64,000 nucleotides of DNA from an uncultured Eubacteriales bacterium. Its GTDB lineage: Bacteria > Bacillota > Clostridia > TANB77 > UBA1234. Positions within the stretch are counted from its first letter, which is position 1. Each line of letters opens with the position of its first letter. Both the position numbers and the translations under genes were made by a program. The DNA lies in NCBI GenBank assembly GCA_964400015.1, contig CAYNRR010000001.1, positions 113,275-177,274 of the forward strand. Reading direction: 5' to 3'. The notes under the pieces are model-generated. The model saw only the letters and a program-made list of their open reading frames with translations, was not told the origin of the DNA and did not search any database. This document shows, in pieces, positions 4,091-53,541 of this stretch.

Positions 4091-4116
4091 CATTTAACGG
4101 ACGTCCCTAGTGTAGC
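4091..4116 (-). repeat. Copy 1 of the conserved 26-nt GC-rich motif ACATTTAACGGACGTCCCTAGTGT; it overlaps the stop codon of giant gene 1
   Basis: The 26-mer is identical to the copy at 15808 and contains the palindrome GGACGTCC. On the minus strand, CAC-TAG encodes the final His and the stop of the gene. Confidence 0.8.
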
Positions 4117-7100: not shown

Positions 7101-10100
7101 TGTTGAAATATCATTTGTAGCAGAAATTGCATATGCTTCTATTCCACTTGAAATTCCGCCATCATACGTTACAAGCGAAATAACTTCATTTACGCCATCG
7201 TATCTTATTCTTTCATGTGTTACTATCTCTGGAACTGTTTTATCCAATTTAAGTTCAAATGTTGCTTCAGATGAAATGTCTTCATTATCTGCAACACCTC
7301 TTGCTTTTGCACGAATGATTGTAGATAAAGTTTCTTGTTCATAATTAAATGTATTTCCTGTTGTCCATTCAGAACCATTTATTGAATAAATGTATTCAAT
7401 AGCACCTTCTGTATACTCACTTCCACCTATTGTTACCACAACATTACCATTTGCCCAATTTCCTGAAGATATTTGAGTAGCACCTTGTGTTACCGTTATT
7501 GTTGGTACAGTTGGAATATATCTTACATATACATCTCTTTTTACACTCATTAGAGCATTACCAGTAGGCTTGTAAACTGTCCAAACCACTTCATATCTTC
7601 CTGAAACATTTTCTTTAACAGTGCTTGTAGAACTTAAAGTGTAGCCTAATCCTGTATAAATATCTGAATTTGCTACAGTTAAACCTGCAACAGTAGCACC
7701 TGATTCAGTATAAATTTCACCTGGTTTCATCACTACATATTCTTCGCCTTGAAGTTCAAGAATTGGTCTAATTCTATCTGCACCTAACTCACTTTCATAA
7801 TTTTCTGCATTCTCATAATTCGTTTCAGATACTGGATCTAAAACATACAAGATTGCATTTGGCAAGTCTTTCAAACCTGTATTTTCAGGAAGCTTAATTG
7901 CATCTGAAGGTGATGTTATTTGTCTTTCTGTAATGATGGCTTTTAGGCTATCGCAATCTTCAAATTGGCCTTTATCTAGCCATGCAAAGTCTTTGCCTAG
8001 TTGGATAATTTCAAGCGAAGTACAATCGGCAAACATATAGCTCATGTCTGCTACATTATTTGTATTGAACTTTTCGCCTAGGTTTAGTTCTGTTAAGGAA
8101 TAACACTCGTTAAACATACTATACATATCTGTTACATTACTTGTATCAAAGTTATCGCCCAAATTTAATTCTGTTAACGATTCGCAGCAATAAAACATTT
8201 CGCACATATCTGTCACATTACTTGTATCGAATTTTTCTCCCAAATTCAATTTTGTTAATGAATAACACAAGCTAAACATCTCGTCCATTCCTGTTACATT
8301 ACTTGTATCAAAGTTTTGACCCAAATTCAATTGGGTTAATACGTAACACGAACAAAACATATAATTCATGTCTTCGACGTTACTTGTATAAAATTTCTCT
8401 CCTAAGTTTAGTTCTGTCAATGAACTACAGCCACCAAACATCGCATGCATATTTACTACATTACTTGTATCAAAGTTTTTGCCCAAGCTTAACTCTTTTA
8501 GTGACCAACAATCACTAAACATATAGCCCATATCTATTACATTACTTGTGTCAAAGTTGTCGCCCAAGTTTAATTCTACAAGTGATTTACAAGCCCCAAA
8601 CATTCCATACATATCTGAAACATTGCTTGTATCAAAATTATCGCCCAAGTTTAGTTCTGTTAATGATCTACACTCTTCAAACATTCCATACATATCTGTA
8701 ACATTACTTGTATTAAAGTTTTCACCCAAGTTTAAGTTTGTTAACGAATCACAATCATAAAACATTTTAAACATATTTGTTACATCTCTTGTATCTAACA
8801 ATTCCATTCCTTTTATTTCAGTAATTTTAGTATACTTATTAAACAAATTCTCACCTGATGTAACTTTTATTTCAGATTTTGCCACTATGTATTGGTCATA
8901 ATATTGTGTGCCATCTTTTACAACTGATGGTACCAAGTATGATGTTACTGTACCTGTTGCGTTTTCAGCAGACACATCCCATTTAGCAGTAGTATTTGAT
9001 GGTACTGTATTTGTGAATATAATTTTTGTTATTCTATCTGCTGTGTAATCTTTTTCATTTGCTCTTTTTGCACCAAGTGCATAGTATACAAATTCTCCAT
9101 CGATATAATCGTAGCTTTCTCTTGCCATCAACTGAGGTGCAATATTTGCTACTGTTACTGTTCTTGTTAATTTATCTATCCTTGTTGTCATGTTTGCACT
9201 ATCTGTATATTGCAAATTGTATGTTATTGTTTTTGTTCCTAGTGTAGAAGTGTCTACTGGCAAACCTGTAACTTCAACCGTGTAACCTAAATTGTTGTAG
9301 TTTGCAGCATTTGTGCTATTCCAATCAAATACTGTTGCTCCAGCATCTACATATTCAGTATCTAATCCTATTTTGGCTGGATTAGCTCCTAATAAACTCA
9401 TGAAAGGCTTAATCTTTTCTACACCCAATACTGAAATATATGTGCTGTTTGCTTCATACAATGCTTCATCAGAAGCTGTTGGCACGTAAAGAATTGCCTT
9501 TTTGCCCGATAACCCATTATTGGTTGCAATTTGCATCAAATCGCTTTCGCTACTTACACTACGTAAAGAAATTATTCGAGTAAGTTTTGTCATGTTGCCA
9601 AACATATAAGTACCAGTAAGTCTATCGAAATTTGATGGTAATACTAACGTTTCTAGTGAAGTACAATAGTCAAACATATACCCCATATCTGTTACTTGGC
9701 TTGTATCAAATTTATCGCCTAAGTTTAGTTCTGTTAAGGAATTACAATAATAAAACATATCGTTCATATTTGTTACATTGCTTGTGTCAAAGTTTTCTCC
9801 TAAGTTTAGTTCTATTAAGGAACTACACTCTTCAAACATTCCAGACATGTATGTAACATTACTTGTATTAAATTTTTCTCCTAAGTTTAGTTCTGCCAAT
9901 GACTCACACCACCCAAACATATTACTCATGTCTGTTACTTGGCTTGTGTCAAATTTATCTCCCAAGTTTAGTTGTTCTAACGAATAACATTCGCAAAACA
10001 TAATTTCCATATCTGTTACATTTCTTGTATCAAAGTTTTCCCCTAGATTTAATTGTTCTAACGAATAACACCCGCAAAACATACCGTACATATTTGTTAC

Positions 10101-13100
10101 TTGGCTTGTATCAAATTTATCGCCTAGATTTAATTGTTCTAACGAATAGCATTCGCCAAACATAATTTCCATATCTGTTACATTACTTGTATCAAACTTT
10201 TCTCCCAAGTTTAGTTCTACTAAAGAATTACAGTAGTAAAACATATCGCTCATATCTATTACATTGCTTGTATCAAATTTTTCGCCCAAGTTTAGTTCTG
10301 TTAAGGACTCACACGCCTCAAACATCTCACACATATCTGTTACATTACTTGTATCAAATTTTTCACCTAAGTTTAGTTCTGTTAAGAAATTACAGCCGCC
10401 AAACATATCATACATATATATTACATTGCTTGTATCAAACTTATCGCCTAAGTTTAGTTTTGTTAAGGAACTACAACAGTAAAACATCCCCCCCATATCT
10501 GTTACGTTACTTGTATCAAATTTTTCACCAAAATTTAGTTCTGTTAAGGAATTACAGTAATGAAACATACTATCCATATTTGCTACATTGCTTGTATCAA
10601 ATTTTTCACCAAAATTTAGTTCTGTTAAGGAATTACAGTAGTTAAACATACCGTTCATATTTGCTACATTGCTTGTGTCTATCAATTCCATTCCTTTTAT
10701 TTCAGTAATTTTAGTATACTTACAAAACAAGTTCTTACCTGATGTAACTTTTATTTCGGATTTTGCTACTATGTATTGGTCATAATATTGCGTGCTATTT
10801 TTTATAACTGATGGTACCAAGTATGATGTTACTGTACCTGCTGCACTTGATAATGATGCATCCCAATTAACAGTAGCATTTGATGGTACTGTATTTGTGA
10901 ATATAATTTTTGTTATTCTATCTGCTGTGTAATCTTTTTCATTTGCTCTTCTCGCACCAAGTGCATAATATACAGCTTTTCCATCGATATAATCGTAGCT
11001 TTCTCTTGCCATTAGCTGAGGTGCAACACTTACTGTTACTGTTCTTGTTAATGTATCTATTATTGAGGTTATGTTTGTCTTATTTGTATATTTTAGTGTA
11101 TAAGTTATTGTCTTATCTCCTAGTGTACTTGTATCTATTGGTAATCCTGTAACTTCAAGTATATATCCTAAATCGTTGTAGTTTGTAGCATTTGCATTGT
11201 TCCAATCAAACACTGTTGCTCCTGGATCTACGTATTCAGTACCAACATTTACAGTGTCTGGATTATTGCCTACCAGACTCATGAAAGGTTTAATCTTTTC
11301 TGCACCTAATACTGAAATATATGTGGTATTTGCTTCATACAATGCTTCATCAGAAGCCGTTGGTACGTAAAGAATTGCCTTTTGGCCAGATAACCCATTG
11401 TTAGTTGCAATTTGCATCAAATCGCTTTCGCTACTTACGCTACGTAAAGAAATTATTCGTGTAAGTTTTGGCGTGTTATCGAACATATAACTACCAGTAA
11501 GTCTGTCGAAGCTTGATGGCAATACTAGAGTTTCTAGTGAAGTACAACCAGAAAACATACGATACATTTGTTCTACATTGCTTGTATCAAACTTATCGCC
11601 TAAGTTTAGTTTTGTTAATGATGTGCAGCGATAAAACATTGCTTCCATATTAGTAACTTTACTTGTGTCAAAGTTTATACCCAAGTTTAGTTCTTTTAAC
11701 GAATTGCAGTTATAAAACATATAAGACATAACTGTTACTTGGCTTGTGTCAAACTTTTCGCCTAAGTTTAGTTCTGTTAAAGAACTACAGCCGTAAAACA
11801 TACTATCCATAGTTGTTACTTTACTTGTGTCAAAGTTTATACCCAAGTTTAGTTCTTTTAACGAATTACAGTTATAAAACATATAAGACATTCTTGTTGT
11901 TACTTTACTTCTGACAAAATTTTTGCCAAAATTTAGTTCTGTTAAAGATGTACAGTTGCCAAACATCCACGACATATCTATTACATTGCTTGTGTCGAAA
12001 TTGGTACCTATATTTAATTTTGCTAATGAATTGCAATTAGCAAACATATTTACCATACTTGTTACTTGGCTTGTGTCAAACTTTTCGCCTAAATTTAGTT
12101 CTGTTAACGAATTGCAATTATAAAACATATAACTCATATCTGTTACTTGGTTTGTGTCAAACTGGGTACCTATATTTAATTTTGTTAATGAATTGCATTT
12201 AGCAAACATAGATTTCATATTTGCTACTTTACTTGTATCAAACTTTCTACCCAAGTTTAATTCTTTTAGCAAATAGCAATTGTAAAACATAGAACTCATA
12301 TTAGTTACTTGGCTTGTGTCAAAATTTGTACCTATATTTAATTTTGTTAATGAATTGCAATTAGCAAACATATTTACCATACTTGTTACTTTACTTGTAT
12401 CAAATTTTCCACCCAAGTTTAACTCTTTTAACGAATTGCAATTATAAAACATACAAGCCATACTTGTAACATTGCCTGTATCAAAATTCTCACCCAAATT
12501 TAATTCTTTTAACGAAGTACAGTTATAAAACATAAAATTCATATTTGTTACATTACTTGTATCAAATTTAGATATATCTAATGTGGTTAGTTTTTTACAA
12601 TCAAAAAACATTCCATACATATCAGTAGCATTATTAGTAGTTAAATATTCTATATTTTCTATTTGAGTCAAATTTGAATAGCCCTTAAATAAAATGTATG
12701 TATCTCTAGCATTTATTGTATCAGTTGCAACAAAGTACTGTGCATAGCATTGTGCACCGTCAATTATTGTTGACGGTACTAAATATGATGTTACCGTACC
12801 TGGTGCACTTGTTGAAGATGCATCCCAACTAACAGTGGCATTTGATGGTACTGTGTTTGTGAATACTACTTTTGTTATAAGGTCAGGTGAATATTCTGTT
12901 TTTCCAGCTCTATACGCACCTATTGCGTATTCATATGAAACATAACCATTAACTACATCTCTCCCCATTAACTGAGGTGCAACATTTACTGTTACTGTTC
13001 TTGTTAATGTATCAAATGTTGAAGTTGTGTTTGTACTATCCGTATATTGTAAATTGTATGTTATAGTTTTGGTTCCTAGTGTAGAAGTATCTACTGGTAA

Positions 13101-15182: not shown

Positions 15183-15290
15183 TAGTTAGTCATCCTTTCA
15201 GTTTAAAAGTTTAAAACCTTTCACTAAGTAAAATATTGTAGTTTAAAACTGTGTTGCACATTCCGTTTAAAGCTATTAAGGTCTTTTATC
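14450..15290. repeat. Near-identical duplicate (about 840 bp) of the 5' end and leader of giant gene 2 (partner at about 52810..53650); it includes a remnant of the DGR RT 3' end
   Basis: The first ~290 codons of both giant genes, the RBS and about 100 bp of leader are essentially identical. The embedded plus-strand ORFs 14699..14902 and 53058..53261 are identical. Positions 15190..15290 encode the last ~23 codons of the RT (..ALNGMCNTVLNYNILLSERF*) although no RT gene is present at this locus. Confidence 0.9.
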
Positions 15291-15585: not shown

Positions 15586-15640
15586 CACATTTTCCTAACG
15601 ACTTTTTAAAGAACTCGCACATTTTCCTAACGACTTTTTA
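15586..15640 (-). promoter_or_regulatory. Two 23-bp perfect direct repeats (TAAAAAGTCGTTAGGAAAATGTG on the minus strand) spaced 32 bp apart in the giant gene 1 upstream region; a candidate regulator-binding site
   Basis: Exact repeats at 15586-15608 and 15618-15640, about 400 bp upstream of the gene 1 start. Confidence 0.35.
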
Positions 15641-15720: not shown

Positions 15721-15807
15721 TTGGTTTTACCTTATATTCATTTCAGCCTTTTATCTTTTATTTATTTTCCCTTTAATTAGTTTTTCCTTTTACTGGGAAA
15801 AAAGAGA

Positions 15808-15833
15808 CATTTAACGGACGTCCCTAGTGTCTC
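15808..15833 (-). repeat. Copy 2 of the 26-nt motif; it overlaps the trpS stop codon
   Basis: ACATTTAACGGACGTCCCTAGTGT is identical to copy 1. CAC-TAG supplies the ...LRH* end of trpS. Confidence 0.8.
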
Positions 15834-16810: not shown

Positions 16811-16832
16811 AAAAAACCTCCTATATACAGTT

Positions 16833-20674: not shown

Positions 20675-20687
20675 ATCTAACTTCCTT

Positions 20688-20730
20688 TCAAAAATAAAAA
20701 TAGGGAGCTAAAACATACGTTTTAACCCCC
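20688..20730 (-). terminator. Hairpin plus T-run between the ToxI-like repeats and toxN (attenuator-like)
   Basis: On the minus strand, GGGGGTTAAAAC-gtat-GTTTTAGCTCCC is followed by TATTTTTATTTTTG. Confidence 0.45.
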
Positions 20731-20745
20731 ATTAAATTACGCATT

Positions 20746-32214: not shown

Positions 32215-32240
32215 AATGAACATTTAACGGACGTCCCCGG
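32215..32240 (-). repeat. Copy 3 of the 26-nt motif (variant ACATTTAACGGACGTCCCCGGTGT) overlapping the spmA stop
   Basis: 24 of 26 positions identical to copies 1 and 2 (TA to CG). Here spmA reads through CACACCGGGGACGTCCGTTAA and stops at the TAA inside the motif. A tandem GTGTGTCGCT(T/G)CGG repeat follows. Confidence 0.75.
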
Positions 32241-42700: not shown

Positions 42701-45700
42701 GTAAGTGATCTTGGTAATGTTATTGAATCTGCAACTATCATGTTAGATAATCCATATTCCCCAATCTTTGCGATGCCCTCTGAAACTACTACACTTGTTA
42801 CTCTAGTATCATTACTCCATGGAGCATTTGATACTGTGTAATCTTTAATGTATCCAATTGTTCCATTTACTACTTCAAATAACAATGTTCCATCAAGTTT
42901 TAATATTGCTCTTGTGTCTGTTCCTGATTCACCTGTTGTATCCCAAATTTCTAAGCATATCCATTTTGCAACAAATTCTTTACTTACTACATTTCCAGCT
43001 GCGTCTTTAACCCATACAAAGTATGATTTATTTTCTGTAACTGTAAATGTGTTTGCTGTATTCCAAACATTACTATCTAAAGCAGGCATTTCATTTGTTT
43101 CTGTTAATGCATATCCTGTAACTTTAATATTATCTCTTGCAATTATTTCAAGTGTTTGTGAATTTTTCACCCAGTCTGTTTGAGAAATAATATTTTCAAT
43201 TACTGGTGCTTCTGTATCACGTACAACATATCTCGTTTCTTTATTACCATTTATTTCACTACAAATAGCAATAGATTCTTCAAGAATTGGTTCTACGCCA
43301 GAATATATTGTAGCTGCATTTGCAGTTATTTGACCATCATACCAGTAGAATTCGCCTACGTTTTCAATAGCAGTTTGTGTAGCTATTACTTCAACTAAAT
43401 CTCTTTGAGTAACATCTCCTGCTACACCAAAAGTTAATTTACCTTTATTTACTATACCTGTAATACCTGTAATTTTTACATTTTCAGATACGTTAACAAT
43501 TCCTTTTGAAGTAATTGCTGTATTAGAGCCATTTACTTCTACTGCTCCTTTTAATGTTAATGTTCCACCATCAACTACAATTAGGCTTGATGTACTTGTT
43601 CCATCTGTTGTGCTTTGTGAAATTGTTCCTAATCCTTCAATTGTTAAGTTACCTTTTACAGTTATAAAGTCATTAACTTTTATTGTTGAATTATTTCCAT
43701 TAAGTTTTAATGTTAAAGTTTTTGAGCTTTCAACTACTGCAACTGTATTTTCAGTTACTTCGTTTAATTGAATTATTATTGCTCCATCTTTAGCACCTGC
43801 AAATGCTGATGCTAATGTTTCATAATAATTTGTACCATCAGTGTAATTTGCACTTAATGTACCAACTACTACTGTTGCAGTTGCTGCAGAGTAGTTAATT
43901 GATTCATCCAATGTAACAGTAATAATTGTAGAACCTGTGCCTTTTGAAATAATTTCAATAGTCTTTCCTGTCAAATCTATGTTTCCAGCAGTTGCTACGC
44001 TAGTATCTGCTGATTCAACTGTAATCGTACTTTCAACATTTGATGTGTAATTTAAAATTCCTGTGTTACCTTGTGTTATGTTTAACTGAGTTGGTGTAAC
44101 TACAAATTCAGGAGTTGCTTTATTTATCTTAAAGCTTGCTGTTTCATTTATTAGTACGTAGTTGTTTGCATTTGCTCTTCCACCTGTTACACTTGCGATT
44201 CTTGTTTTAGCTATATAGTTACCAGCATCTACTTTAATATATTTTGTAAGTGTTACTACTTCGCCATCAACTACAGATTCTGTATGTACTTCTGGTCCTT
44301 GCTCTGTTCCGTTATATGTGAATGTAAATGGTCCATCCCAAATTGCTGCAATTGATTTTTTAGCAATTGTCCATATTACTTCTTCAGTAATTTCTTCACC
44401 TTTATCCCATTCGCAATCATCTGGATCTGTTAATATATATTCGGCTTTATATGTACCTGCATCAGTTCCAGTGTTGCCTGTAACTTCCATGTATTTTTCG
44501 TTATATCCATCTGGTATAAATTCTTGTTCTTCACCGTTATATACAAGTGAATTATCATCTTTTGGAAGTGTTACAACTTTTTTAGCTATTGTATCGCTAA
44601 CATTATTAGCTTCATCTGCTAAATCATAGAATTTTGCTTCTTCATATTCGCCATAATTTCCTGTAACTTCAACATAGATATACTTTCCAACTAATCCTTT
44701 GCCTACTGTATAAGTCTTGTTTGTTGCACCCTCAATTGGTGTTCCACCGTTTGTAGACTTTATGTCACATATGTACCATTGGTAAGTATAATTTTCTTCT
44801 GGTATTGTTGATGAAGTAATCTTCGCTGTTAATGTAGAATCGTATTCATTTTTACCTTCTACCTTAACTGTTGCTTCAATTCCTCCAACTTGTACTTTTC
44901 TTGTTAATGACATAAATGTTGTATATGTTGCATTTTCGTCATATGGATTTTTGTATTCAAGTGTATATACTACGTCATAAACACCCATTGTACTAAAGTC
45001 TATATCTTCAACACCTGTAATTGTTACTCTGTAATCTCCGATATTTTCATCTTCTAAAGTTTCTGGCATTTCATCTGCAATCTTGTATCCGTATTCTGTA
45101 TATGAACCACCTAGATTTACTTTCACTCTTTCATCGCCTATTAGTGATAATAGAGATTTAATTCTATCGGCAGTAAATTGATTGATATATGAACTATTTG
45201 CTTCATATAAAGCTTCTGCTGTTTGGCTTGATACATATAAAGTAGCTGGTGTATTTCTTACACCTATACCAACACTATTTATAGCCATCATATCTGATGA
45301 TGTTTCAACACTTCTGTTTGAGATTATCTTTTGAAGGTTTTCACAACCATTAAACATGTAATAACCATTTAAAGTATTAAATTTTTCACCTAATACTAAT
45401 GTTTCTAAATTTGTACAATTTTGGAACATAGAGAACAGTGGACCTCTTCCACGCAATTGTTGAGGTTCTCCTGCATTGCTTGTATCAAAGCTACTCAAAT
45501 CTAATTTTGTTAAAGAACTACAATTTGTAAACATACCGTACATTGCTGTAACTTCACTAGTATTAAAATTAGTTACGTCTAATGATAATAAAGAAGAACA
45601 ATTATTAAACATCTCAGCCATTACTGTTACGTTAGATGTTTCAAAACTTCTTAAGTCTAATTCTTCTAAACTTGTACATCCACTAAACATGCTTTCAAAT

Positions 45701-48700
45701 GATGTTGCATCTTGTGTTGATATATATTCTATGTTATCTATTTCAGTCATATTGCTATATCCATAGAATAATTTTGCACCATATGCTGCTGTTATTCTAG
45801 CTGATGCTACTATGTATTGATCATAATATTGTGTTCCATCTTTTAGCTCTGATGGTACTATGTATGACATTACTGTCTTATGACCATTTACAAGTGATAC
45901 GTCCCATGAATCAACATAGTTTGTTGGTATTTTGTTAGTGAATATAACTTTTGTTACTTGTGAAGCGTTATATGTAGTTGCTTCATTTGCTCTATATGCA
46001 CCCAACATAGCTCCTGTTGCAGTTTCTCTCTCCATAAGTTCTGGCGCACCTTTTATAACGATTTCTCTTGTTATATTCATTACTTCTTTTGTCGTACCAT
46101 TTTCTGTGTAATTTAAAGTATATGTTATTGTTTGTGTGCATACTTCACTTGTGTCAATTGATGTTTTATCTACGGTTACTGAGTATCCGTATTTTGTATA
46201 ATTTGTTGCATTAGCACTATCAAATCCTGCAACTGTTGCTCCTTTTTCTGTGTAGCTTTCGCCTTTTATCTTGTATGTTGGATTATCTCCATTTAGTTCT
46301 AGTATTGTTCTTATTCTGTCTGAACCTAGTGCTGTTTCATAAGGAGTTGTTGCCTCATAATTTACTTTTGCAGTTTGGTTTGGCACATATAAGATTGCAT
46401 TTGTTGCTGTGTCAAATCCAACTGAAGCTGTTGTTGTCATCGACTCTGCTCTTTGTGCAATAATTCTGCTTAAAGAAGTATCGCCTGCAAACATATTTGC
46501 TCCAGATATTTTTGTAAAGTTTTCGCCTAGTACTATTGTTTCTAAGTTTGTGCAATTTTCAAACATTGATTTCATTGATGTAACATTTGTTGTATTAAAG
46601 TTTCTTAAATCTAATTCTTTTAGTCCTGTACATTCTGCAAATGTGTAATCTGTTTTTGTTATCTTTGAAGTATCGATATTAGACCAATCGAAAGTTTGCA
46701 TTGATTTAATATTTTTAAACATTCCATACATACTTGTAGCTCTTGATACGTCAACAATTTCAAAATTATTGATCGAAATACAATTTGTATAGTCTGCAAA
46801 TAACATAGACAATCCAAGTGGTGATATTAAAACTTTGTTATCTGAACCTATATATAAATTGTCATCTTTTACCCATGCTAATATGCTTTCATCTTGTGCC
46901 TCAGATACATCCCAGCTAGTAGCACCTGCTGGTACATTTGTATTTTCTACAAATGTAACTGATTTAATTTTGTCTGATGTAAATTGTGTATATCCAGCTT
47001 CTTCTGCACCTATTACATATGTAGCATATGGTTTTGATGTGGCATCTAACGAATAGTTTCTAATCATTAGATATGGTGCTAAGTATGCTGTTTCGTATTT
47101 TTTACCGTTTATTGTTTCTTCACTCTTATATACATCATATCCATCTGCAATCGATGTTATATCTCCACTATAGGCATTAGTTCTACCTTTTAATATACCA
47201 TCATAAAATCCAAAACCGTTCGGTGAAGTAATAGCATATGTTTTACCTATAATGCTTGGTGTAGTTGTACTAACTGTTTCATCATTTGAACCAATTACAA
47301 TTTTACCAGTTGATGGATTGTTAATTGCTTCTCCATATTCTGATATTAGAGTACCACCAGTAATATTTACTGTATTTGATGTTGAATAATTTCTGATTGC
47401 GTAACTGCCTTTTGATTTAAGCTCTCCACCAGATATGTTTACTATACCTGTTTGTTTTTCATCTGTTCTAATTGCATATCCGTTTGATTCAATTGTACCA
47501 CCACTAATATTTATTATGAATTCTTTAGTTTTATATAGATTACAATATATACCATTAGTTTCACTAATAATTTTTCCACCTGTTACATTAACTGTTGCCT
47601 GTTCTTCATCAATTATTATCGCAGCATTTCCATCGTTTAATGTGATTTGGCCTGCCTTAATATTTAGTATTCCAGCTTTTAAATGAAGCACACAGTTCAT
47701 ATTATTTATTAGTGTAACTTCTTCTATATTTAGAGTTCCATACGTCGAAATCAAATATTCTAAAGTTGTATTATCGTCTGCTAGTTTTATCACACCATCG
47801 CCGTTAATTGTCAATGTACCTAAATTAGCAATTCTTTTGCCTGTTAGTGTTATTGTATGTCCGTTTGTGTTGATTGTTATATCTTTTCCACTTTCAACTA
47901 TTAGTTCTGATGTATCTGTATTATCTGCTTCTACTTTAATTGTTCCTTTTGTTCCTGTGATTGATGCATAAGCTTCTGCTAATGTATCGAACATTACTCC
48001 ATCTACACTATAGTTTGATGCTGTTACTGTTACTTTGGCTGAATTTGATATTGTTCCTACAAGTTTTTCTTGTGTCATTTTTGCATTTGGATATGCACTA
48101 TTTGATAATACGCATCTGTATTCATAACCATTCATTGCTTGTGTTAGACCTGTTGTTGTAAATGTTGCCGTTGTTCCATTTGTTCCTTGTGCATCTGTTA
48201 CGTTTGTCCAAGTACCTGTAGCACTTGTTCTGTATTGCCATTGATAATTTATATCTGCTGGATTACCTGCTGTTGCAGTAACTGTGAATGTTGCTTTATG
48301 TCCTGCATTTACACTTACGTCTGTAGGTTGTGCATCTATCATTGGTGGATAATATATCTTTGTATTTTCAGCAGTATAGTGAGTTCCACTTACAAATTTA
48401 TCTGCAACATCTTTTGACATTGTATATATTACAGAGTTTGCTTGAAGATTTGTAAATGCTTCTGTTCCTATTTCTATAATTGATGTTGATTTCAAGTATA
48501 CTTCTGCTATATTTTTTGCTCCTGCATATGCGTAATCTGCTATGTTTTCAACATTTGCATTTATTATATGAGTTGCTGTGCCATTTCCTGCTGGATATGA
48601 TACAACTGTTTTTCCGTCATATGTTAGCAATGCTATGTTTTCTACTTTGTAATTTGTATTACCTGTTGCTATTGAGAAGCCTGTAATGTTTGATCCCATA

Positions 48701-51700
48701 AATGGATTTGCTCCCATGCTTGCAACTTGTACAGGTATTGTTAAAATACCTGTCATGTTTTTAGTATCTGCTAATGCAAAATCTCCTATTGCTTTTAGTT
48801 GTGTTGGTAATGTAATTGTTGTAATTGCAGTACCTCTAAAAGCATTGTTTCCTATGCTTGTTACGGTTGAGTCAATACTAATTTCAGTAATTTTTGAAGT
48901 ATATGAATTCCATGGTGTATCTGCTGTTGTAAAGTCTTTCATTTCTCCCATACCTGTTATTAGTAATTGGTATTTTGTATTGTCTTCGTTGTTTATTAAG
49001 TATGCCCAAACATTATCTACTCCTGCATTTTTTGAAATATTCCATGCTTGTTTTAATGATGCAACTTCGTAGTGCATTCCATCAATTTCTTCGTGATAAT
49101 TGTATATTGCTGTGTTGTTTGGTGTCACTACGTTTGTTTTATCTACTGCATTTATTCCACCTTTTATTAAACCATCATAGAAAACTATATTTGAGCCATC
49201 AGTATATACCCCATAACCTTCACCAATGATTGTTACTAAGTTATCGTTTATAATTCCATCATCTGTACCAATAGTTAATATGGCGTTATCAGATATATAT
49301 ATAGCTGATGTGTATGTTGCTCCACCGTTATCTACGGCACTAATAGTTCCACCATTTACATTTAAAGTACCACCATTTACATGCATATATAGAGCAATTG
49401 TATAAAGACCATCTTCCATAGTTGTATCACGGTTTATTGCAATAGTTCCACCATTTACATTTATTGTGCCACCATAATCTAATATTGTACTTTGTATGAT
49501 TCCAACATTTTCAGCACTTACTGTACTTGTTAACGTACCTGAATTTATATTTGTAACAGCTCCATAATTATTAAATAAAATTTCATACTCTCCCGTTCTT
49601 TCACTTACATTTAATTCTATTGTCGCTGTTTCTATATTTAGTTCTCTGTCATTTTGAATTAAGTTAATGTCGTTTCCAACAAGTGATCCAGCACCAGTTA
49701 TATTAAGTACGCCGTAGTTTACTATTCCTCTTTCATTTTTTGTTAGAGCGTATGTACTTAAATCTAATGTAATATTTTTGTTTGTTGGAATTATTGCATT
49801 TACAACATCTGTGCAATCTCTCATAACTTCAACTGTACCTGTTGTAGTAATTGATTCGATTGCAGATTCTAATGTTGAGTAATATTTTTCTCCAACACGA
49901 TAATTTCCTAAAGCAATTGCTATAGTTCTTGTTTGTGTATCTACTACTGTTGTTTCATTTGCTTTATTTGTATATTTCAATGTGTAAGTAATTGTTTTGT
50001 CACCTAGTGTGCTTGTATCTATTGGTAATCCTGCTGTTTCAACTGTGTAACCTAAATCGTTGTAATTTGTAGCGTTTGTGCTATCCCAATCAAATACTGT
50101 TACTCCAGCGTCTACATATTCAGTACCTGCTTCCATTTTTGCTGGGTTATCCCCTAATAAGCTCATGAAAGGCTTAATCTTTTCTGCACCTAGCAATGAA
50201 ATATATGTGCTGTTTGCTTCATACAATGCTTCATCAGAAGTCGTTGGCACGTAAAGAATTGCTTTTTTATCAGATAAGCTGTTATCTGTTGCAATTTGCA
50301 TTAAATCGCTTTCACTCCTTACACTACGTAAAGAAATTATTCTTTCAAGTTTTGTGTTGTTAAGGAAAATGTATTTACCATCAAGTCTAGTAAATTTTTC
50401 ACCTAGTATTACAGTTCTTAAATTTGTACAGTTAGATATTAAAGCAGTTGTATCTGTAAGTGCTTTGCCTGTATCTGCCCACTTATACGCACCTGTAACG
50501 CCATCTAATGCAGAAGTGTCAAAGCTCGATAAATCTAAGAATGTTAAACTTCTACAGTTGTCAAACATTGATGCCATACACTTAGCAGACGAAGTATCGA
50601 AACTTGTAACATTTAATTCCGTTAGAGAATAGCATCCCTTGAACATATGATCAAAATTCGTAACTTTAGATGTATTAAACATAGATACATCTACGCTCTT
50701 TAGTGATTGACAATCTGCAAACATTTCGGCCATATTTGTTATTTTACTTGTATCGAATTGATTGCCTAAATCTAACTCTGTTAAAGCTTTACAGTTATAG
50801 AAAATATGATACATGTTTGTTACATTGCTTGTATTGAACTGAGTTCCCAAATTTAATGTTTCTATCGATGTACAACTTGCGAACATATAACTCATATCTG
50901 TTACTTTACTTGTATCAAATTTTTCTCCCAAATCTATTGCTGACAATAATGTACATCCTCTGAACATAAGTCTTGTAGTAGTAAGTGCTCTTGTGTCAAA
51001 TTGTTTTCCTAAATCTAATGTTGTTAATGAGCTACAATTTTGTAACATGTTACTCATATTCTTTACTTTTATTGTATTAAAGTTTTCACCTAAATTTAAT
51101 TTTGTTAATGAACCACAAGAATAAAACATAGCAGACATACTTGTTACATTGCTTGTATCAAAGTTCGTACCTAAGTTTAATTCTTTTAGTGCACTACAAC
51201 CTGAAAACATTGATTCCATCAATGTTACATTGCTTGTATCAAATCTAGATATGTCTAATGTCTTTAATTTTTTACAATTTCTAAACATTCCAAACATGTT
51301 AGTTGCATTGTTTGTTGTTAAATATTCTATGTTTTTTATCTCTGTCAAATTTGAATATCCATCAAATAACATACACGTATATTTAGCATTTATTGTATTA
51401 GTTGCAACAAAATATTGTGCATAGCATTGTGTATCGCCACTCATTGTTGATGGTACTAAGTATGATGTTACTGTATCTGGTGCACTTGTTGAAGAAACAT
51501 CCCAACTAACAGTAGCATTTGATGCTGCTGTGTCTGTGAATATTACTTTTGTTATAAGGTCAGGTGTATATTCTGTTTTTCCTGCTCTATATGCACCTAT
51601 TACATATTTGTTTGTAATGTATCCATCAATTCCTTCTCTTTCCATCAACTCTATTTTTACTTCTGCATATACACTTTCTGTTTCTATTGGTTGTACTACG

Positions 51701-53541
51701 CTTAGTGCTGCTACGTCTGATGTTTTTTTGTAATCGGCAATTGATGAATTCCATATTACGCATCTTAATTCAAATCCATCTGCACAGTCACCTGATGTCA
51801 TTTTGCTTGTATCCATTGTTAATTTTGCTGTGTTATATCCTGTTGCAATTGATGATGTTACATCTTCCCAGTAGATGTTATCTCCTGATTTGTATTGCCA
51901 TTGGTATTTGTTTGCACCTTTTGCTGTTATTTCAAAAGTTGCTTTTTCGCCATAGTTTATTTTTTGTGTTTCTGGTTGCTTTGTATATTCTAATTCAAAT
52001 TTTGCTGCTTTTATTGAAATGTCGCCTTCTGCTACGGATACAGTAACTATGTCTGATTTTACCGCATCGTGTTCTTTGTAATAATTGTTTCCTACTAAGC
52101 AACGATATTGATAATCTGTGTTACTATATAATCTTGTTTTTGTTGTGAATGTTGACTTCTTTAGTGGTTTTTCTGTTGTTGAATTTGATGGTGTTGATGT
52201 GCTTGAACTACCTTGAGTTGATGTTGCATCTTTCCAGTAGTCATTTTCACTTTCTCTGTATTGCCATGTAAATGTTAAGTTTGTTCCCATTGCCACTACG
52301 CTAAACTTAGCAGTTCCACTTTGAACTTTTACTTTAGTTAAATCTAAAGTTGGTTGTTCCATGATTATTGGAATTTCTCCTACAGATATACTTGTGGCTG
52401 GTGTTAATGATAGTGCCGCTATATCTGATGAAACTCTTTGTTCTTCTGTAAAATATGTGTTACCAACTAAACATCTATATGTGTATTCTTCCATTACTGG
52501 ATATGTTGATACGCTAAGTGTTGCTGATGTTGAACTTGAGCTTACATTTTTCCAATATGTATTTTCGTTTTCTCTATATTGCCATTGGTAAGTTGTTGCA
52601 TTTTCTGCTACTACTTTGAATGTAGCAGTATTTCCTACTATTACTTTTTGTGTTGCTGGTTGTGTTGTTATGCTTGGTGCAAGCGCTGTTGTAACTGTTA
52701 TTGCTATATCTTCATCAACACTTGAGATATTGCATACTTTACCTCTAACATTTCCTAGTGTTGTGATTGCACTATCTCCTGATGCAAGTGTTGATTCTAT
52801 GCTTGCTATACCGTAATTGTTGTTTGGAACAATATTAAAGTTTAATGCTGTTCCTTCTGCTACTGTTGTGTTTCCTACTATTTCTTCTCCGTTTGTATCA
52901 AACACTTTGTAGTTTTCGCCGTCAAATGTTATTTTTCTTGTATTTACTGTGATGATTATATATGTAGAGAAACTGCCTGTTGTAAATTCTATTTCTTCTG
53001 CTGTTAATTTGCTTATTGGCAATATCTCATAGTTTTCGTTGTTCATAATATGCATAAGTGCATATGTTTTTGAATCGTCTATGTCAAGGTTCATGTCTAA
53101 GTTTGAAAGTTTTACTTTTACTTTTTGCCCATACGCAGTTGGTTGATATTTTAGGTTTTCATTTGTTACATCGATATCGAATGCGTCTACTACTTGTTCT
53201 GGTAAAATATCTTTTTTATAGCTTTGTGCTAATGATACTGCGTCTTCTTTATTTAGTTTAGCAACTTCTACTTGCGAATTTTTGATTAGTACACCTGTGA
53301 CTTGAACTTTTTCATTTGTAGAAGTTTGTTCCGATTCTATCTCATCATATTCTACGTAGTTTGAGAAAGGAAGCTTTTCACTACACAAGTCACAAATCAT
53401 ATCGATGTCACTATCGATATGTTCGCAAGATATTAACTTATTTTTTTCAGACTTTCTTATAAAGCCTGCTCCTATTCCAGCCGTGGCTACCAGCACCACT
53501 ATGCTCATTAAAATTAAGATAATCTTGTTCTTTTTCATCAT
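33709..53541 (-). CDS. Giant (6,610 aa) multidomain surface protein: Ig-like domains, DUF285/BspA-type repeats, LRR_5 (BspA-like) repeats and beta-helix regions
   Basis: Single uninterrupted ORF. Its N-terminal ~290 aa are near-identical to giant gene 1. It contains Ig-like domains with a QWQYR motif, three DUF285 arrays (..FDTSNVT.M..MF..C.SL..L), several arrays of FxxxxxLxxIxLPxxLxxIGxxAF (LRR_5), parallel beta-helix-like Gly/Asn-rich repeats, and SbsA-type Ig domains. Its start codon is only 28 bp from the DGR RT stop codon. Confidence 0.8.
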   Translation of the reverse strand: MMKKNKIILILMSIVVLVATAGIGAGFIRKSEKNKLISCEHIDSDIDMICDLCSEKLPFSNYVEYDEIESEQTSTNEKVQVTGVLIKNSQVEVAKLNKEDAVSLAQSYKKDILPEQVVDAFDIDVTNENLKYQPTAYGQKVKVKLSNLDMNLDIDDSKTYALMHIMNNENYEILPISKLTAEEIEFTTGSFSTYIIITVNTRKITFDGENYKVFDTNGEEIVGNTTVAEGTALNFNIVPNNNYGIASIESTLASGDSAITTLGNVRGKVCNISSVDEDIAITVTTALAPSITTQPATQKVIVGNTATFKVVAENATTYQWQYRENENTYWKNVSSSSTSATLSVSTYPVMEEYTYRCLVGNTYFTEEQRVSSDIAALSLTPATSISVGEIPIIMEQPTLDLTKVKVQSGTAKFSVVAMGTNLTFTWQYRESENDYWKDATSTQGSSSTSTPSNSTTEKPLKKSTFTTKTRLYSNTDYQYRCLVGNNYYKEHDAVKSDIVTVSVAEGDISIKAAKFELEYTKQPETQKINYGEKATFEITAKGANKYQWQYKSGDNIYWEDVTSSIATGYNTAKLTMDTSKMTSGDCADGFELRCVIWNSSIADYKKTSDVAALSVVQPIETESVYAEVKIELMEREGIDGYITNKYVIGAYRAGKTEYTPDLITKVIFTDTAASNATVSWDVSSTSAPDTVTSYLVPSTMSGDTQCYAQYFVATNTINAKYTCMLFDGYSNLTEIKNIEYLTTNNATNMFGMFRNCKKLKTLDISRFDTSNVTLMESMFSGCSALKELNLGTNFDTSNVTSMSAMFYSCGSLTKLNLGENFNTIKVKNMSNMLQNCSSLTTLDLGKQFDTRALTTTRLMFRGCTLLSAIDLGEKFDTSKVTDMSYMFASCTSIETLNLGTQFNTSNVTNMYHIFYNCKALTELDLGNQFDTSKITNMAEMFADCQSLKSVDVSMFNTSKVTNFDHMFKGCYSLTELNVTSFDTSSAKCMASMFDNCRSLTFLDLSSFDTSALDGVTGAYKWADTGKALTDTTALISNCTNLRTVILGEKFTRLDGKYIFLNNTKLERIISLRSVRSESDLMQIATDNSLSDKKAILYVPTTSDEALYEANSTYISLLGAEKIKPFMSLLGDNPAKMEAGTEYVDAGVTVFDWDSTNATNYNDLGYTVETAGLPIDTSTLGDKTITYTLKYTNKANETTVVDTQTRTIAIALGNYRVGEKYYSTLESAIESITTTGTVEVMRDCTDVVNAIIPTNKNITLDLSTYALTKNERGIVNYGVLNITGAGSLVGNDINLIQNDRELNIETATIELNVSERTGEYEILFNNYGAVTNINSGTLTSTVSAENVGIIQSTILDYGGTINVNGGTIAINRDTTMEDGLYTIALYMHVNGGTLNVNGGTISAVDNGGATYTSAIYISDNAILTIGTDDGIINDNLVTIIGEGYGVYTDGSNIVFYDGLIKGGINAVDKTNVVTPNNTAIYNYHEEIDGMHYEVASLKQAWNISKNAGVDNVWAYLINNEDNTKYQLLITGMGEMKDFTTADTPWNSYTSKITEISIDSTVTSIGNNAFRGTAITTITLPTQLKAIGDFALADTKNMTGILTIPVQVASMGANPFMGSNITGFSIATGNTNYKVENIALLTYDGKTVVSYPAGNGTATHIINANVENIADYAYAGAKNIAEVYLKSTSIIEIGTEAFTNLQANSVIYTMSKDVADKFVSGTHYTAENTKIYYPPMIDAQPTDVSVNAGHKATFTVTATAGNPADINYQWQYRTSATGTWTNVTDAQGTNGTTATFTTTGLTQAMNGYEYRCVLSNSAYPNAKMTQEKLVGTISNSAKVTVTASNYSVDGVMFDTLAEAYASITGTKGTIKVEADNTDTSELIVESGKDITINTNGHTITLTGKRIANLGTLTINGDGVIKLADDNTTLEYLISTYGTLNIEEVTLINNMNCVLHLKAGILNIKAGQITLNDGNAAIIIDEEQATVNVTGGKIISETNGIYCNLYKTKEFIINISGGTIESNGYAIRTDEKQTGIVNISGGELKSKGSYAIRNYSTSNTVNITGGTLISEYGEAINNPSTGKIVIGSNDETVSTTTPSIIGKTYAITSPNGFGFYDGILKGRTNAYSGDITSIADGYDVYKSEETINGKKYETAYLAPYLMIRNYSLDATSKPYATYVIGAEEAGYTQFTSDKIKSVTFVENTNVPAGATSWDVSEAQDESILAWVKDDNLYIGSDNKVLISPLGLSMLFADYTNCISINNFEIVDVSRATSMYGMFKNIKSMQTFDWSNIDTSKITKTDYTFAECTGLKELDLRNFNTTNVTSMKSMFENCTNLETIVLGENFTKISGANMFAGDTSLSRIIAQRAESMTTTASVGFDTATNAILYVPNQTAKVNYEATTPYETALGSDRIRTILELNGDNPTYKIKGESYTEKGATVAGFDSANATNYTKYGYSVTVDKTSIDTSEVCTQTITYTLNYTENGTTKEVMNITREIVIKGAPELMERETATGAMLGAYRANEATTYNASQVTKVIFTNKIPTNYVDSWDVSLVNGHKTVMSYIVPSELKDGTQYYDQYIVASARITAAYGAKLFYGYSNMTEIDNIEYISTQDATSFESMFSGCTSLEELDLRSFETSNVTVMAEMFNNCSSLLSLDVTNFNTSEVTAMYGMFTNCSSLTKLDLSSFDTSNAGEPQQLRGRGPLFSMFQNCTNLETLVLGEKFNTLNGYYMFNGCENLQKIISNRSVETSSDMMAINSVGIGVRNTPATLYVSSQTAEALYEANSSYINQFTADRIKSLLSLIGDERVKVNLGGSYTEYGYKIADEMPETLEDENIGDYRVTITGVEDIDFSTMGVYDVVYTLEYKNPYDENATYTTFMSLTRKVQVGGIEATVKVEGKNEYDSTLTAKITSSTIPEENYTYQWYICDIKSTNGGTPIEGATNKTYTVGKGLVGKYIYVEVTGNYGEYEEAKFYDLADEANNVSDTIAKKVVTLPKDDNSLVYNGEEQEFIPDGYNEKYMEVTGNTGTDAGTYKAEYILTDPDDCEWDKGEEITEEVIWTIAKKSIAAIWDGPFTFTYNGTEQGPEVHTESVVDGEVVTLTKYIKVDAGNYIAKTRIASVTGGRANANNYVLINETASFKINKATPEFVVTPTQLNITQGNTGILNYTSNVESTITVESADTSVATAGNIDLTGKTIEIISKGTGSTIITVTLDESINYSAATATVVVGTLSANYTDGTNYYETLASAFAGAKDGAIIIQLNEVTENTVAVVESSKTLTLKLNGNNSTIKVNDFITVKGNLTIEGLGTISQSTTDGTSTSSLIVVDGGTLTLKGAVEVNGSNTAITSKGIVNVSENVKITGITGIVNKGKLTFGVAGDVTQRDLVEVIATQTAIENVGEFYWYDGQITANAATIYSGVEPILEESIAICSEINGNKETRYVVRDTEAPVIENIISQTDWVKNSQTLEIIARDNIKVTGYALTETNEMPALDSNVWNTANTFTVTENKSYFVWVKDAAGNVVSKEFVAKWICLEIWDTTGESGTDTRAILKLDGTLLFEVVNGTIGYIKDYTVSNAPWSNDTRVTSVVVSEGIAKIGEYGLSNMIVADSITLPRSLTEIAESALYRTNNYSSINISGNTHFTIDELSIYDISKTTLYSYSKKNTEIDFTIPDTVKTLVTGLFYENGTLVEIRTNKNITSVGEDAFEGFKADVYYYTSCETMKEYALANSEEANFIAIDDVKPVIESFVINNDDISTISQDVTLTIIAKDDVKVSNVFISEQYYTDEEIRNKANSEWISYNGTEYPYTVSSGTGTKTVYVWVKDSSGNISSSVNDSIFYGDIEVKLLNQAEIVQYVDTTGKDYYKYIESVQGGYTSKSNVTVNVTGSVNHKVSGEYEIKYSVMLNDIEMQTLTRTVNVIENSWTGAKGTTQDEFTYVIHTNGKYAKITGYTGEFTRVLRIPASVTLDGTEYKVIDVESIGANRIVETVELPDTLINIGNRAFAEFNELENVDIPDAVMSIDENAFASAGLMNGIFVKLGSNFREIKAEAFKNARISDIDFGSMVKYLGDNAFANVRVPENFVLKLPASLDALGLDTFESTKIYDITVEEGNNKFIIDDDGISLLTNDEEMLVLYPIASDFEEYDIPQGVTTIGRKAFKDAEKLKIVNVSSSANTVNEYAFEGATNLEKVNYSELLTNIGEYAFLNSGVTSFAFNRNLNNISKGAFENSKLTDVSIHSKITSIKAEAFKGITTLKSVVIEGKPSISISAFENCTSLKTAVFTNNTGIVTIADKTSIPDSTTIYVPTSMEVIYESDSIYSQYENCTEKIQPILELIGNQEIVWTINNEYVEDGVKLAGETLKTSANSSTVKGLELVIDGTVDPSKSLRNTIVYIAKYNGVEVDRIERIVDIQDNIAPVIESVTTDSDWVSPYQTFVVKATDNIAVTAYIITTENTVPSVDDSRWQTSEKLKVDANQIWYIFAKDAAGNISTRYQVISTWVAAGKWDVSKNQDNSVHGIITLDGKTLIIKGNGETKNYAEKETPWYEDYKDTVTTITVEDGVTSIGDYLLGYMPNVLTITLPNTLEKVIDGAFAYTNNFENIELGNNTHLVYENGTLYNADKTELYVHTTKHTNDYEIPSNVQKICAAAFANSIYISRLDLTNVKEIQSYAFNGCTHFANQYIPKTLNKIGEKVFAGTRGPIYYYSSCDAMVEYVKAYGSETEFIEIDDIKPVIKNFVINNNEVSTDNENVTLNIDATDNKAISKIIIETTLSENITSGDPRWTDYAGEKEVAYTLTGGNGIKILYVWVMDTSGNICEQYATDTIILGANDFAFEHNDTIVQYVDRTGKGYYEFNEEVQGNYSIETEGVTVTVNANIDVTTVGEKQIVYSLDYYGTPAGEFYKTVDVIEDSWGTTIFSENGFDFVKHTDKNYAKIVKYSGSTNVVFPEIVTDGGIAYRVIEIESLDENPVVDVNTTTVELPTTIIHVGKNAFVNCTKLESINIEYNVLTIEENAFKNTGLKALDTNKNVRVIKEGAFENAHITTLNNSQLLKSIETRAFRNALDTERLTILASIDNIAEGAFAGSLIDKIVLDDENVTSKFKVHEDSLLLDTTTGTLIQYATGKGTISLECPSIGIKKIGEGAFMNATNIQKLSIKDNYTMVGREAFRNTGLTIFELNSNIQAIPEYLFADCTSLSTVILENARSIKANAFENTSALKQLVIFTSADYVCDIDNVSLLNENTKVYVLEKEMYKESASWTAIADRIYSIFRLNGDENITIEAGTEYIDSGVYAIDVLFASTSTYPDIDNITVEINSNVNTAKLGNQTVNYILKLNGNARTELSRNVKVQDTTPPVIEKIITLDVAQAQREKFEIIASDNHKIAGYAITQTDTQPILDSDVWSTSNVVYATQNGEWFVWVKDEAGNVAMETVKAENICAAIWDVGVVPNKVFASISFDNTIIFEGEGAVRYFAKEDIPWKDYLEKVNKIEVREGVTELQKYTLADMTNVGEISLPKSLTKVETSTFAKTNNFYEITFPNGTETFIYDGYTLYSMDKSILYVHSNRDQNITYTIDENVKTIGEYAFANNSNIVTITTTSNPTLLEGAFNNNNTLEKINGEIGGTRIESYVFENCSKLSGIEMSKDVTYIGSYAFSNCNMITEIEMILCTELKTLDHHAFANLKNLQTLKVYRTIANILADEENVRNVFEKMGSNFPENAKVYYYEGCNAMEEYAKYYPDINVDFIMIDEIGPRLMSLKVTNRENGTYSAGTVLEITAIMSENFLTIKGTIPELSIEFGSGSVIKLQPNGVDGRNIKYTYTITKDDLGQLECVSFDGELYDELDNKSEFKGPKTIDGNIYARSGVLLESDFEENKYFPRLSDATEYITSTGKLTMLLNEDAMKVATFKANTLVTLDINGKKVSLNCDQSEDTRLIKNNGTLTVIDSGAGELSTISTGLDACAIENEGTLKLVSGVIRAQTLKTGLAYGVLNKGEVNITGGTISAVNTEGTSYGMYNEGTLKMENGTITSSTIEGKTYALYVANGNVNVTGGQITSRLLSGNKGTTTGVYIEKGTYVSGKNDESISKESPIIYSTKDGLRNVGGKLEFYDGVIEGEAYRSLYTNEVKVVPGYALIKKLVGDREKAYLDFDVSKPIIELKNLTPDWTNDKVTIQAKFIDEESGVQNAYYGETEVTLVNNMITVEVEQNGTYTFKAIDFAGNTAEESITITNIDKESPTFENLSYTAMANQKEVTLTVTVKDNASGVRGYLLSKYEVEPTKWKELNKIMTKVELDISVTSNGKYYLYAIDDAGNIGKYNSVIDITDVDASAPVIKSLEIVDNDRGFANSSVVMIKVDAEDDTGVKEILISNKLLTNNQVLDSEEWVPYTEDVIWTLPIGDGEKTIYVWVKDKANRISKTSTATTKLLAQYIGNNGENSTSFKFLSKDANYNYGKELTADDLYIKVKDTTGAETYTGDYGEGIVLAKTPVVYGPIQEGSQAMSGRYYYVTAQNIAGEGIVYLCFRDTVEVDKAGNKIATAKLELETDVVVELNKPVITVSSTTVTVTDADNHSMNVIKIDGKTIKLSNGSITKSDLKAKYDIELVSGTKLETIDKCGNTAVYTIN

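Follow-up and report, generated by a model that had tools for sequence, protein, structure and literature searches.

Ancient repeats, a shared 5' block and a neighbouring diversity-generating retroelement in two giant DUF285/BspA-family genes of an uncultured Eubacteriales bacterium

Two giant genes encoding BspA/DUF285-repeat proteins lie on the minus strand of a 64,000-nt stretch of DNA from an uncultured Eubacteriales bacterium (assembly GCA_964400015.1, contig CAYNRR010000001.1, positions 113,275 to 177,274 of the forward strand; the whole stretch is called the window below, and positions are counted from its first letter). The original prediction for this DNA, made from the letters alone, took the repeats inside these genes for those of contingency adhesin loci. 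We consider a slower history probable: repeat units and modules would have multiplied by birth-and-death duplication with sporadic partial conversion, the 5' ends of the two genes would have undergone gene conversion, and the only device for programmed variation would be a diversity-generating retroelement (DGR) next to the larger gene. Analysis of synonymous sites indicates that the repeats here are ancient and have been kept similar by constraint on the protein; an 81-nt periodicity is not by itself evidence of active recombination, and the case is a caution against the reflex that reads repetitive giant adhesins as contingency loci.

Both open reading frames (ORFs) are present as claimed, and their identity as BspA/DUF285-repeat surface proteins was borne out by Pfam, where DUF285, LRR_5 and Bact_surface_Ig-like all scored far above their cut-offs:

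4107..15182, minus strand: giant gene 1, 3,691 aa (ORF and Pfam)
33709..53541, minus strand: giant gene 2, 6,610 aa (ORF and Pfam)

The domains found in both giants are DUF285 (PF03382), the BspA-type LRR_5 (PF13306), Bact_surface_Ig-like, I-set/Ig_3 and Flg_new. For gene 1, DUF285 reached 731.8 bits (cut-off 25; E=1.6e-224) in 15 stretches and LRR_5 293 bits (E=2.3e-88); for gene 2, DUF285 reached 260.7 bits, and LRR_5 144 and 461 bits in the two halves of the protein. The product of gene 1 begins with a transmembrane (TM) anchor and an N-domain, followed by four modules (each an N-cap, an array of DUF285 leucine-rich repeats (LRRs), a C-cap and an immunoglobulin (Ig)-like segment), then by an LRR_5 (BspA) region and an I-set/Flg_new C-terminal region. 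Gene 2 starts with an N-domain as in gene 1 and continues with three I-set Ig domains, one DUF285 module and many LRR_5/Ig super-modules. As judged from these sequences, the giants are paralogous, N-terminally membrane-anchored surface proteins and new members of the DUF285/BspA LRR family. They are predicted to be exposed at the cell surface and presumably serve as multivalent scaffolds for binding or adhesion, in which the six hypervariable positions of each 27-aa turn would contact the ligand.

The repeats of gene 1 show an 81-nt periodicity at 8043-8795, 9658-10676, 11574-12570 and 13524-13946, with 70-79% matches (TRF). The arrays, delimited by a hidden Markov model of the unit together with motif mapping, and the linker and gene 2 array that belong with them, are as follows:

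13458..13943, minus strand: DUF285 array A, 6 units of 27 aa (aa 414-575)
11505..12638, minus strand: DUF285 array B, 14 units (aa 849-1226), with young duplicates B4/B8 (94%) and B4/B6 (88%)
9624..10676, minus strand: DUF285 array C, 13 units (aa 1503-1853), with young duplicates C1/C2 (94%) and C7/C9 (89%)
7983..8792, minus strand: DUF285 array D, 10 units (aa 2131-2400)
8793..9623, minus strand: module 3 linker, made up of the C-cap, the Ig-like segment and the next N-cap; its DNA identity with the linker of module 2 (10677-11516) is 86%
50515..51315, minus strand: array G, the single DUF285 array of gene 2, ~9-10 units (aa 743-1009)

Gene 1 had been described as four modules of ~1.9 kb, each with seven 81-nt repeats and a conserved linker. 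Four arrays there are, with a spacing that fits the stated size only approximately (array starts are 1305, 1962 and 1884 nt apart); the count of seven is wrong, with 6, 14, 13 and 10 units found (43 in all), and the linker is conserved between modules 2 and 3 only (86% of nucleotides), that of module 1 being 64% identical and that of module 4 unrelated at 43%. The close copies within gene 1 are modules 2 and 3 and no others (78% overall): they form a diagonal at an offset of 1884 nt, 8030-10676 against 9914-12560, with 77.7% identity over 2674 nt (E=0), and the pair of segments given as around 90% identical proved roughly so (9331-9620 against 11212-11501, 87.3%). Calling the repeats highly similar overstates the matter, as DNA identity from unit to unit averages 65-75% and peaks at 94%, each unit being distinct; the best match of a unit is usually found within its own array. 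The antisense ORF noted on the plus strand (10187..10645, 152 aa) is present and is what a periodic coding repeat with few stops would be expected to produce.

The module said to recur in gene 2 was found, with 9160-9590 matching 49925-50355 at 83% and 11041-11504 matching 49925-50388 at 80%; array G resembles the gene 1 modules at 52-55% in amino acids and at 77-83% in local DNA identity. Within gene 2, the top blastn self-matches included no internal repeat, TRF reported one weak two-copy 81-nt array (51072-51243), and the internal repeats are 25-50% identical at the protein level.

The age of the repeats can be read from their synonymous sites. The unit has the consensus TSNVTxMxxMFxxCxSLTELNLGxxFD, and at its 16 conserved positions the synonymous divergence between units (pS) is 0.65, near saturation, with a nonsynonymous divergence (pN) of 0.08. 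Arrays B and C differ by 0.51 at synonymous sites. With synonymous sites so nearly saturated and pN so low, the 65-75% DNA identity of the units is mainly a shadow of amino-acid conservation and not a sign of ongoing homogenisation; frequent unequal exchange would homogenise synonymous sites, so the pattern is the opposite of what it would leave. The hypervariable positions 8, 9, 12, 13, 15 and 24 have pN/pS of 0.7-0.9, values that are relaxed or diversifying and not above 1, and positive selection at these positions was accordingly rejected.

In the history that we prefer, units would grow by in-frame 81-nt tandem duplication in steps of 1, 2 or 4 units, and whole modules of ~1.9 kb would duplicate and then diverge over a long time, as in birth-and-death evolution. 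The part of the original prediction that foresaw gain of repeats holds over evolutionary time, as seen in the pairs B4/B8 and C1/C2 (94%) and C7/C9 (89%), in the exact in-frame tracts listed below and in the greatly differing gene sizes of relatives. Occasional gene conversion would act between paralogous segments; here conversion is the mechanism we infer, and the synonymous differences between the linkers of modules 2 and 3 are unevenly distributed, pS falling from 0.355 over the first half to 0.165 over the second (Fisher p=0.004).

As contingency adhesin loci, by comparison, the genes would change their unit or module number at high frequency through homologous recombination or slipped-strand mispairing. 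The sequence offers some material for this. After the 717-nt tract discussed below, the longest exact tracts measure 73, 50, 50, 45 and 44 nt: the 73-nt tract, the longest within a gene, lies in the linkers of modules 2 and 3 (8994 = 10878, offset 1884), the 50-nt tracts stand at in-frame offsets of 81 and 162 nt (one of them at 10510/10591 in array C), and the 44-nt tract falls in array B (12024/12348, offset 324). Some unit pairs are young, at 94% identity, and the arrays are of unequal length, but adjacent units are never identical or near-identical, the mean unit identity is as low and the synonymous sites as near saturation as described, and gene 2 lacks internal repeats at the DNA level. 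Simple-sequence repeats (SSRs) were absent from both giants, where TRF gave periods of 81, 162 and 243 nt only. Syntenic or orthologous genes of related species do differ much in size; these differences, however, lie between species, not strains. In mycoplasmas the DUF285/BspA proteins are known as surface proteins with variable gene content, their gene numbers differing between strains (PMC12103780; see also PMC2843621). With no SSRs, no identical units and a pS of 0.65 between units, we regard the contingency interpretation as unlikely. Set against the 70% DNA identity below which homologous recombination had been taken to be improbable, modules 2 and 3 lie above (77.7%, with linkers at 86% and the 73-nt tract), as does the shared 5' block with its 717 perfectly matching nucleotides; the units are borderline at 65-75%, and the internal repeats of gene 2, module 1 (64%) and the module 4 linker (43%) fall short.

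The comparison with relatives made use of trpS, the name used here for the class-I W/Y tRNA synthetase gene that lies upstream of gene 1. Downstream of trpS, three relatives have a giant ORF (of 1,618, at least 1,882 and at least 3,131 aa) with quite different array layouts, and four others have none. The ortholog of gene 2 in another species (L081) amounts to ~1,870 aa in total, against 6,610 aa here. The family is very plastic between species.

The strongest self-match in the window had been missed by the original prediction and involves the 5' ends of the two giants. It aligns 14297-15276 with 52656-53635 at 95.4% over 981 nt, and identity is perfect over 717 nt (14560-15276 = 52919-53635), which comprise 94 nt upstream of the ATG and the first 623 nt of coding sequence. 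The two copies, whose upstream parts include the end of a reverse transcriptase (RT) gene and a ribosome-binding site (RBS), are:

14297..15276, minus strand: 5' cassette, gene 1 copy; 94 nt upstream (RT 3'-end fragment and RBS) and codons 1-294
52656..53635, minus strand: 5' cassette, gene 2 copy, taken as the source; its 94 upstream nt consist of the authentic RT ORF end and a 28-nt spacer

Codons 1-207 show 0 differences over ~125 synonymous sites, and codons 208-294 have a pS of 0.28. On the 3' side the identity decays gradually, mismatches being isolated from +624 onwards and becoming dense after +713; on the upstream side it ends abruptly, 94 nt before the ATG and within the RT ORF of copy 2. 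The RT stop codon stands 28 nt before the ATG of gene 2, and the RT-derived bases upstream of gene 1 form an orphan fragment (15183-15276). This looks like a recent conversion tract laid over older homology, and it is the shared 5' block, not the repeat modules, that holds the real and recent signal of recombination.

The polarity of the event can be argued from other genomes. The order of an RT gene followed by an N-domain gene is kept in another species (L081-L083/L085; three samples), where the RT is 75% and the N-domain ~50% identical, and in relatives the giants linked to trpS lack an N-domain and open with an LRR module; we therefore take gene 2 as the donor and gene 1 as the recipient. 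The latest conversion would have made 717 nt identical, including the RBS, the membrane anchor and most of the shared N-domain of ~290 aa, and would have carried along from gene 2 the RT-gene fragment that now lies upstream of gene 1. Such a fragment would serve as a directional scar, giving a clean case of conversion between giant paralogs in which the polarity can be read. The two 5' copies are direct repeats, 38,359 nt apart. The interval contains metG and trpS, so that its deletion by a crossover would be lethal and survivors are expected from conversion without crossover only. Gene 1 has a promoter-like site of its own at 15336-15308, and both copies look expressible.

The N-terminus that the giants share starts with a hydrophobic helix (residues 5-20 in the AlphaFold2 (AF2) model), followed a little further on by the motif C-x-H-x8-C-x2-C (aa 39-53 of both giants; 15000-15070 and 53360-53430) and then by beta-rich domains. 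The Cys/His motif is invariant in all five known N-domain members and may bind metal or form disulfides. For module 3 (aa 1419-2048), an AF2 model built on the window's own seven paralogous modules reached a pLDDT of 90.7 and a pTM of 0.82. In it, a solenoid that forms a short strand once per 27 residues is preceded by a beta N-cap and followed by an alpha/beta C-cap, with a beta-sandwich at the end. Its top Foldseek matches in the PDB (E<=1e-4) are LRR ectodomains or domains of plant receptor kinases, TLRs, LGR5 and Shoc2, with a probability of 0.99-1.0 but a TM-score of ~0.2, so that no solved structure is close; the fold as modelled is an LRR-type solenoid. With the module 3 linker as query, a search of proteins returned nothing at E<=1e-10.

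Several points weigh against the reading given above. The identical tracts of 44-73 nt at in-frame offsets could support RecA-dependent or slippage events at low frequency, and the uneven pS of the linkers could come in part from different duplication ages instead of conversion. Present-day polymorphism in copy number may exist, as no same-species sequence for comparison was found in genome, metagenome, viral or protein collections. Surface location and binding are predictions from domain families, with the N-terminal hydrophobic helix and domains of extracellular type in favour of the former; the N-domain matched no Pfam family, its AF2 model has a pLDDT of 64, and Foldseek returned no match for it at E<=0.001. 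Finally, the 717-nt identity is that of the assembled sequence.

This last point opens the way to another explanation, in which the perfect identity, and perhaps some of the module structure, is an artefact of a collapsed or mis-joined repeat. Long perfect repeats and 81-nt arrays are classic causes of misassembly, and contigs of relatives often end inside such genes (e.g. L001 and L003). Here, though, each copy is flanked on both sides by different unique sequence, neither ORF is interrupted at the junctions (they remain open for 11 and 19.8 kb), and identity fades gradually on the 3' side as expected at the end of a conversion tract. An N-domain followed by Ig or LRR modules was, moreover, seen independently in other species. 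We consider an artefact very improbable and retain conversion as the explanation of the 5' block.

Two short repeats lie close to these genes. An exact direct repeat of 23 nt with 32-nt spacing (AAAAGTCGTTAGGAAAATGTG...) occupies 15586-15640 on the minus strand, in the 640-nt spacer between trpS and gene 1 and upstream of the promoter-like site of gene 1; it could be an operator or a remnant. The stop codons of trpS (15807-15830) and gene 1 (4090-4113) each lie within a copy of an exact 24-nt direct repeat, ACACTAGGGACGTCCGTTAAATGT, and after each copy comes a terminator hairpin of similar form. The repeat was considered as an insertion scar (att site or target duplication) and rejected, as there is a third copy at 32220-32243 and further copies in the relative L001; ACACTAGGGACGTCCGTTAAATGT is a dispersed motif. 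In the form ACAC(TA/CG)GGGACGTCCGTTAAATGT, the motif overlaps the stop codons of three unrelated genes, namely gene 1, trpS and a Gate-domain ORF (32220-32243), and it occurs in the related metagenome-assembled genome (MAG) L001 at 5439 and 12836, on the reverse strand too. It may be a repetitive extragenic palindromic (REP)-like or a terminator-associated element.

Directly upstream of gene 2, at 53570-57759 on the minus strand, lies a complete DGR that had also been missed. Its parts, including the template repeat (TR) and the variable repeat (VR), are:

57193..57759, minus strand: ORF of 188 aa, first in the row upstream of the DGR target
55739..57172, minus strand: DGR target, 477 aa, with Flg_new and DUF6273 and a hydrophobic, signal-peptide-like N-terminus as read from the sequence
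55795-55908, minus strand: VR, C-terminal in the target (aa 422-460 of 477)
55225..55665, minus strand: MutS-domain-I accessory protein (MSL class), 146 aa (PF01624, 34.3 bits against a cut-off of 20.6)
54861..55238, minus strand: Avd-like accessory protein, 125 aa (bAvd-like PF22296, E=4.8e-7, below the gathering score)
54717..54830, minus strand: TR, rich in adenine and AAC, from the TR/VR comparison
53570..54517, minus strand: DGR reverse transcriptase, 315 aa (RVT_1)

The best solved relative of the RT is 8ub7_A, a reverse transcriptase of 328 aa (E=1e-27), which ranks ahead of retron and group II RTs and which we take to be the Bordetella phage DGR enzyme bRT. The TR/VR pair is 114 nt long. 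In its first 99 nt, 14 of 14 mismatches fall at TR adenines, mostly in the first two positions of AAC codons, a result with a chance of ~1e-7 given an adenine fraction of ~0.34; this core is followed by the invariant, GC-rich GAATGGGGTGCGCCCTGTAG, and the last 15 nt hold mixed mismatches. When the TR region was compared with the whole window by sensitive blastn, 55795-55908 was the only VR, all other matches being of 19-45 nt with E>=0.002. There is no VR in either giant gene, and with no second VR in the window the giants were rejected as DGR targets. The device for programmed hypervariation in this neighbourhood is, by its sequence features, the DGR, which is predicted to rewrite a lectin-type C-terminal VR in a separate protein of 477 aa. 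L081 has an orthologous cassette with an adenine-specific TR/VR pair of its own and an Avd ortholog that is 67% identical and in the same position, and the order of MSL and Avd is kept in L081 and in more than 10 related loci.

The position of gene 2 raises the possibility that it forms one functional unit with the DGR: the two would be co-transcribed, the giant LRR scaffold would display or cooperate with the lectin-fold protein of 477 aa, and the shared 5' cassette would let gene 1 join. Between the RT stop and the gene 2 start there are only 28 nt, without a terminator-like site, so that co-transcription of gene 2 with the DGR operon is possible; the nearest strong pair of terminator and promoter-like site lies upstream of the 188-aa ORF, at 58075-57783, with the promoter-like site at 57811-57783. 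The target has no recognisable anchoring domain, and the order of target, MSL, Avd, TR, RT and N-domain gene is kept in a second species in three samples. Adjacency in two related species can, however, be plain inherited synteny, and the giants have no VR. More than 10 related MSL-Avd-RT DGRs (RT 56-65% identical) have no such gene adjoining, and a third N-domain gene (L084) has no RT upstream; an obligatory coupling of DGR and giant is rejected on these grounds, and the adjacency is for the same reasons taken as lineage-specific synteny. We find a single functional unit improbable. An elaboration of it, to which we give as little credence, would make the 5' cassette not the product of a single conversion but a maintained, portable leader (RBS, anchor and N-domain with its Cys/His motif) that plugs giant LRR bodies into the DGR-linked system, with gene 2 transcribed as part of the DGR operon and the 477-aa protein docking on the scaffold through the N-domain. 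If this were true, the system would be a two-tier variable adhesin, combining slow modular shuffling of LRRs with fast DGR mutagenesis, and a functional link between a complete MSL-type DGR and a 6,610-aa LRR protein would be new biology.

Two observations on the related loci may be added. In L103 the RT gene of a related DGR is apparently split by ~3.4 kb, with residues 1-186 at 7242-7799 and residues 185-277 at 11249-11527, and the gap may be an insertion into the RT. In L081 (3775-9446) a stop codon behind the first Ig domain divides the ortholog of gene 2 into ORFs of 373 and 1498 aa, with 54 nt between them. Three independent samples of gut metagenomes (L082, L083 and L085 alongside L081) show exactly this split, which is either a genuine arrangement of two genes or a pseudogenisation that has become fixed.

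The window has a GC content of ~31% and, besides metG and trpS between the 5' copies, contains ordinary chromosomal genes (tatD, an EPSP-synthase-family gene, MgtC, MinC and a penicillin-binding protein transpeptidase). The nearest TrpRS relatives (77-87% identical) come from uncultured gut MAGs of roe deer, human and Hadza samples, labelled as Clostridia, Eubacteriales or Bacilli. A search of genome contigs and metagenome contigs with the N-domain found no conspecific or close sequence; exact look-ups of TrpRS and RT gave no match, nor did the RT against viral contigs, and Rfam at gathering thresholds gave 0 matches in the window.

Further features of the neighbourhood concern the envelope and defence. 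At 26863-30465 (minus strand) an envelope-related cluster encodes an Athe_2463-domain protein (546 aa), an SLH-domain protein (422 aa) and a SAF/RcpC-like protein (236 aa); these domains suggest that the organism has an S-layer or a system for anchoring to the cell wall, of which the giant proteins make no use. A ToxN/AbiQ-family toxin gene lies at 20174-20847 (minus strand; PF13958, E=3.5e-33; PADLOC AbiQ), with a 40-nt tandem repeat of 2.4 copies at 20752-20847 just upstream, the layout of a type III toxin-antitoxin system with an RNA antitoxin; the unit is flanked on either side by one copy of an exact 27-nt direct repeat (20119 and 20923). An AT-rich segment (~25% GC) at 59419-61642, which may be a small mobile cassette for defence, holds a 250-aa ORF and an AbiEii nucleotidyltransferase toxin gene (60544-61503) between the two arms of a perfect 28-nt inverted repeat (59419-59446 and 61615-61642). 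Adjoining this segment, the gene at 58118-59317 matches the PADLOC candidate system PDC-S01 (AAA_14 and DUF4143, E=7e-154).

Placed beside known systems, the giants resemble the BspA-like/DUF285 surface proteins of Bacteroidota, Firmicutes, mycoplasmas and trichomonads in their HMM matches, their 27-aa LRR solenoid and their mixture of LRR and Ig-like domains. They depart from that family in their extreme size (3,691 and 6,610 aa), in having several arrays per protein, and in being apparently anchored by an N-terminal TM helix with a family-less N-domain, and not by a lipobox or a C-terminal sorting signal. Contingency loci, such as the staphylococcal and streptococcal repeat adhesins and the mycoplasma Vlp/Vsa systems, rely on near-identical repeats or on homopolymer or SSR tracts. 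The giants share with them the in-frame tandem coding repeats and past gain of units, but their units are 65-75% identical, with saturated synonymous sites and no SSR.

A parallel to the 5' block is the concerted evolution of 5' leaders or expression cassettes, for example the conserved 5' regions of the mycoplasma vsp/vpma families. Here too the upstream region, RBS, anchor and first domain are identical and the bodies differ; unlike those families, the window holds two copies only, in direct orientation and 38 kb apart, and both look expressible. Neither a recombinase gene nor a site for site-specific recombination was identified in the window. The most useful results of the analysis are a set of old repeats that probably do not act as a switch, a probable polarised conversion of 717 nt and a previously unreported DGR of an uncultured gut Firmicute. 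The MSL class of DGRs and their "architecture D", with MSL and Avd, have been described (Wu et al., 2018; PMC5758913), and the DGR adjoining gene 2 is a new member of that architecture: it has the same order of target, MSL, Avd, TR and RT on one strand, adenine-specific changes and a C-terminal VR, and shows no essential difference from it, although it adjoins a giant LRR gene that it does not target.

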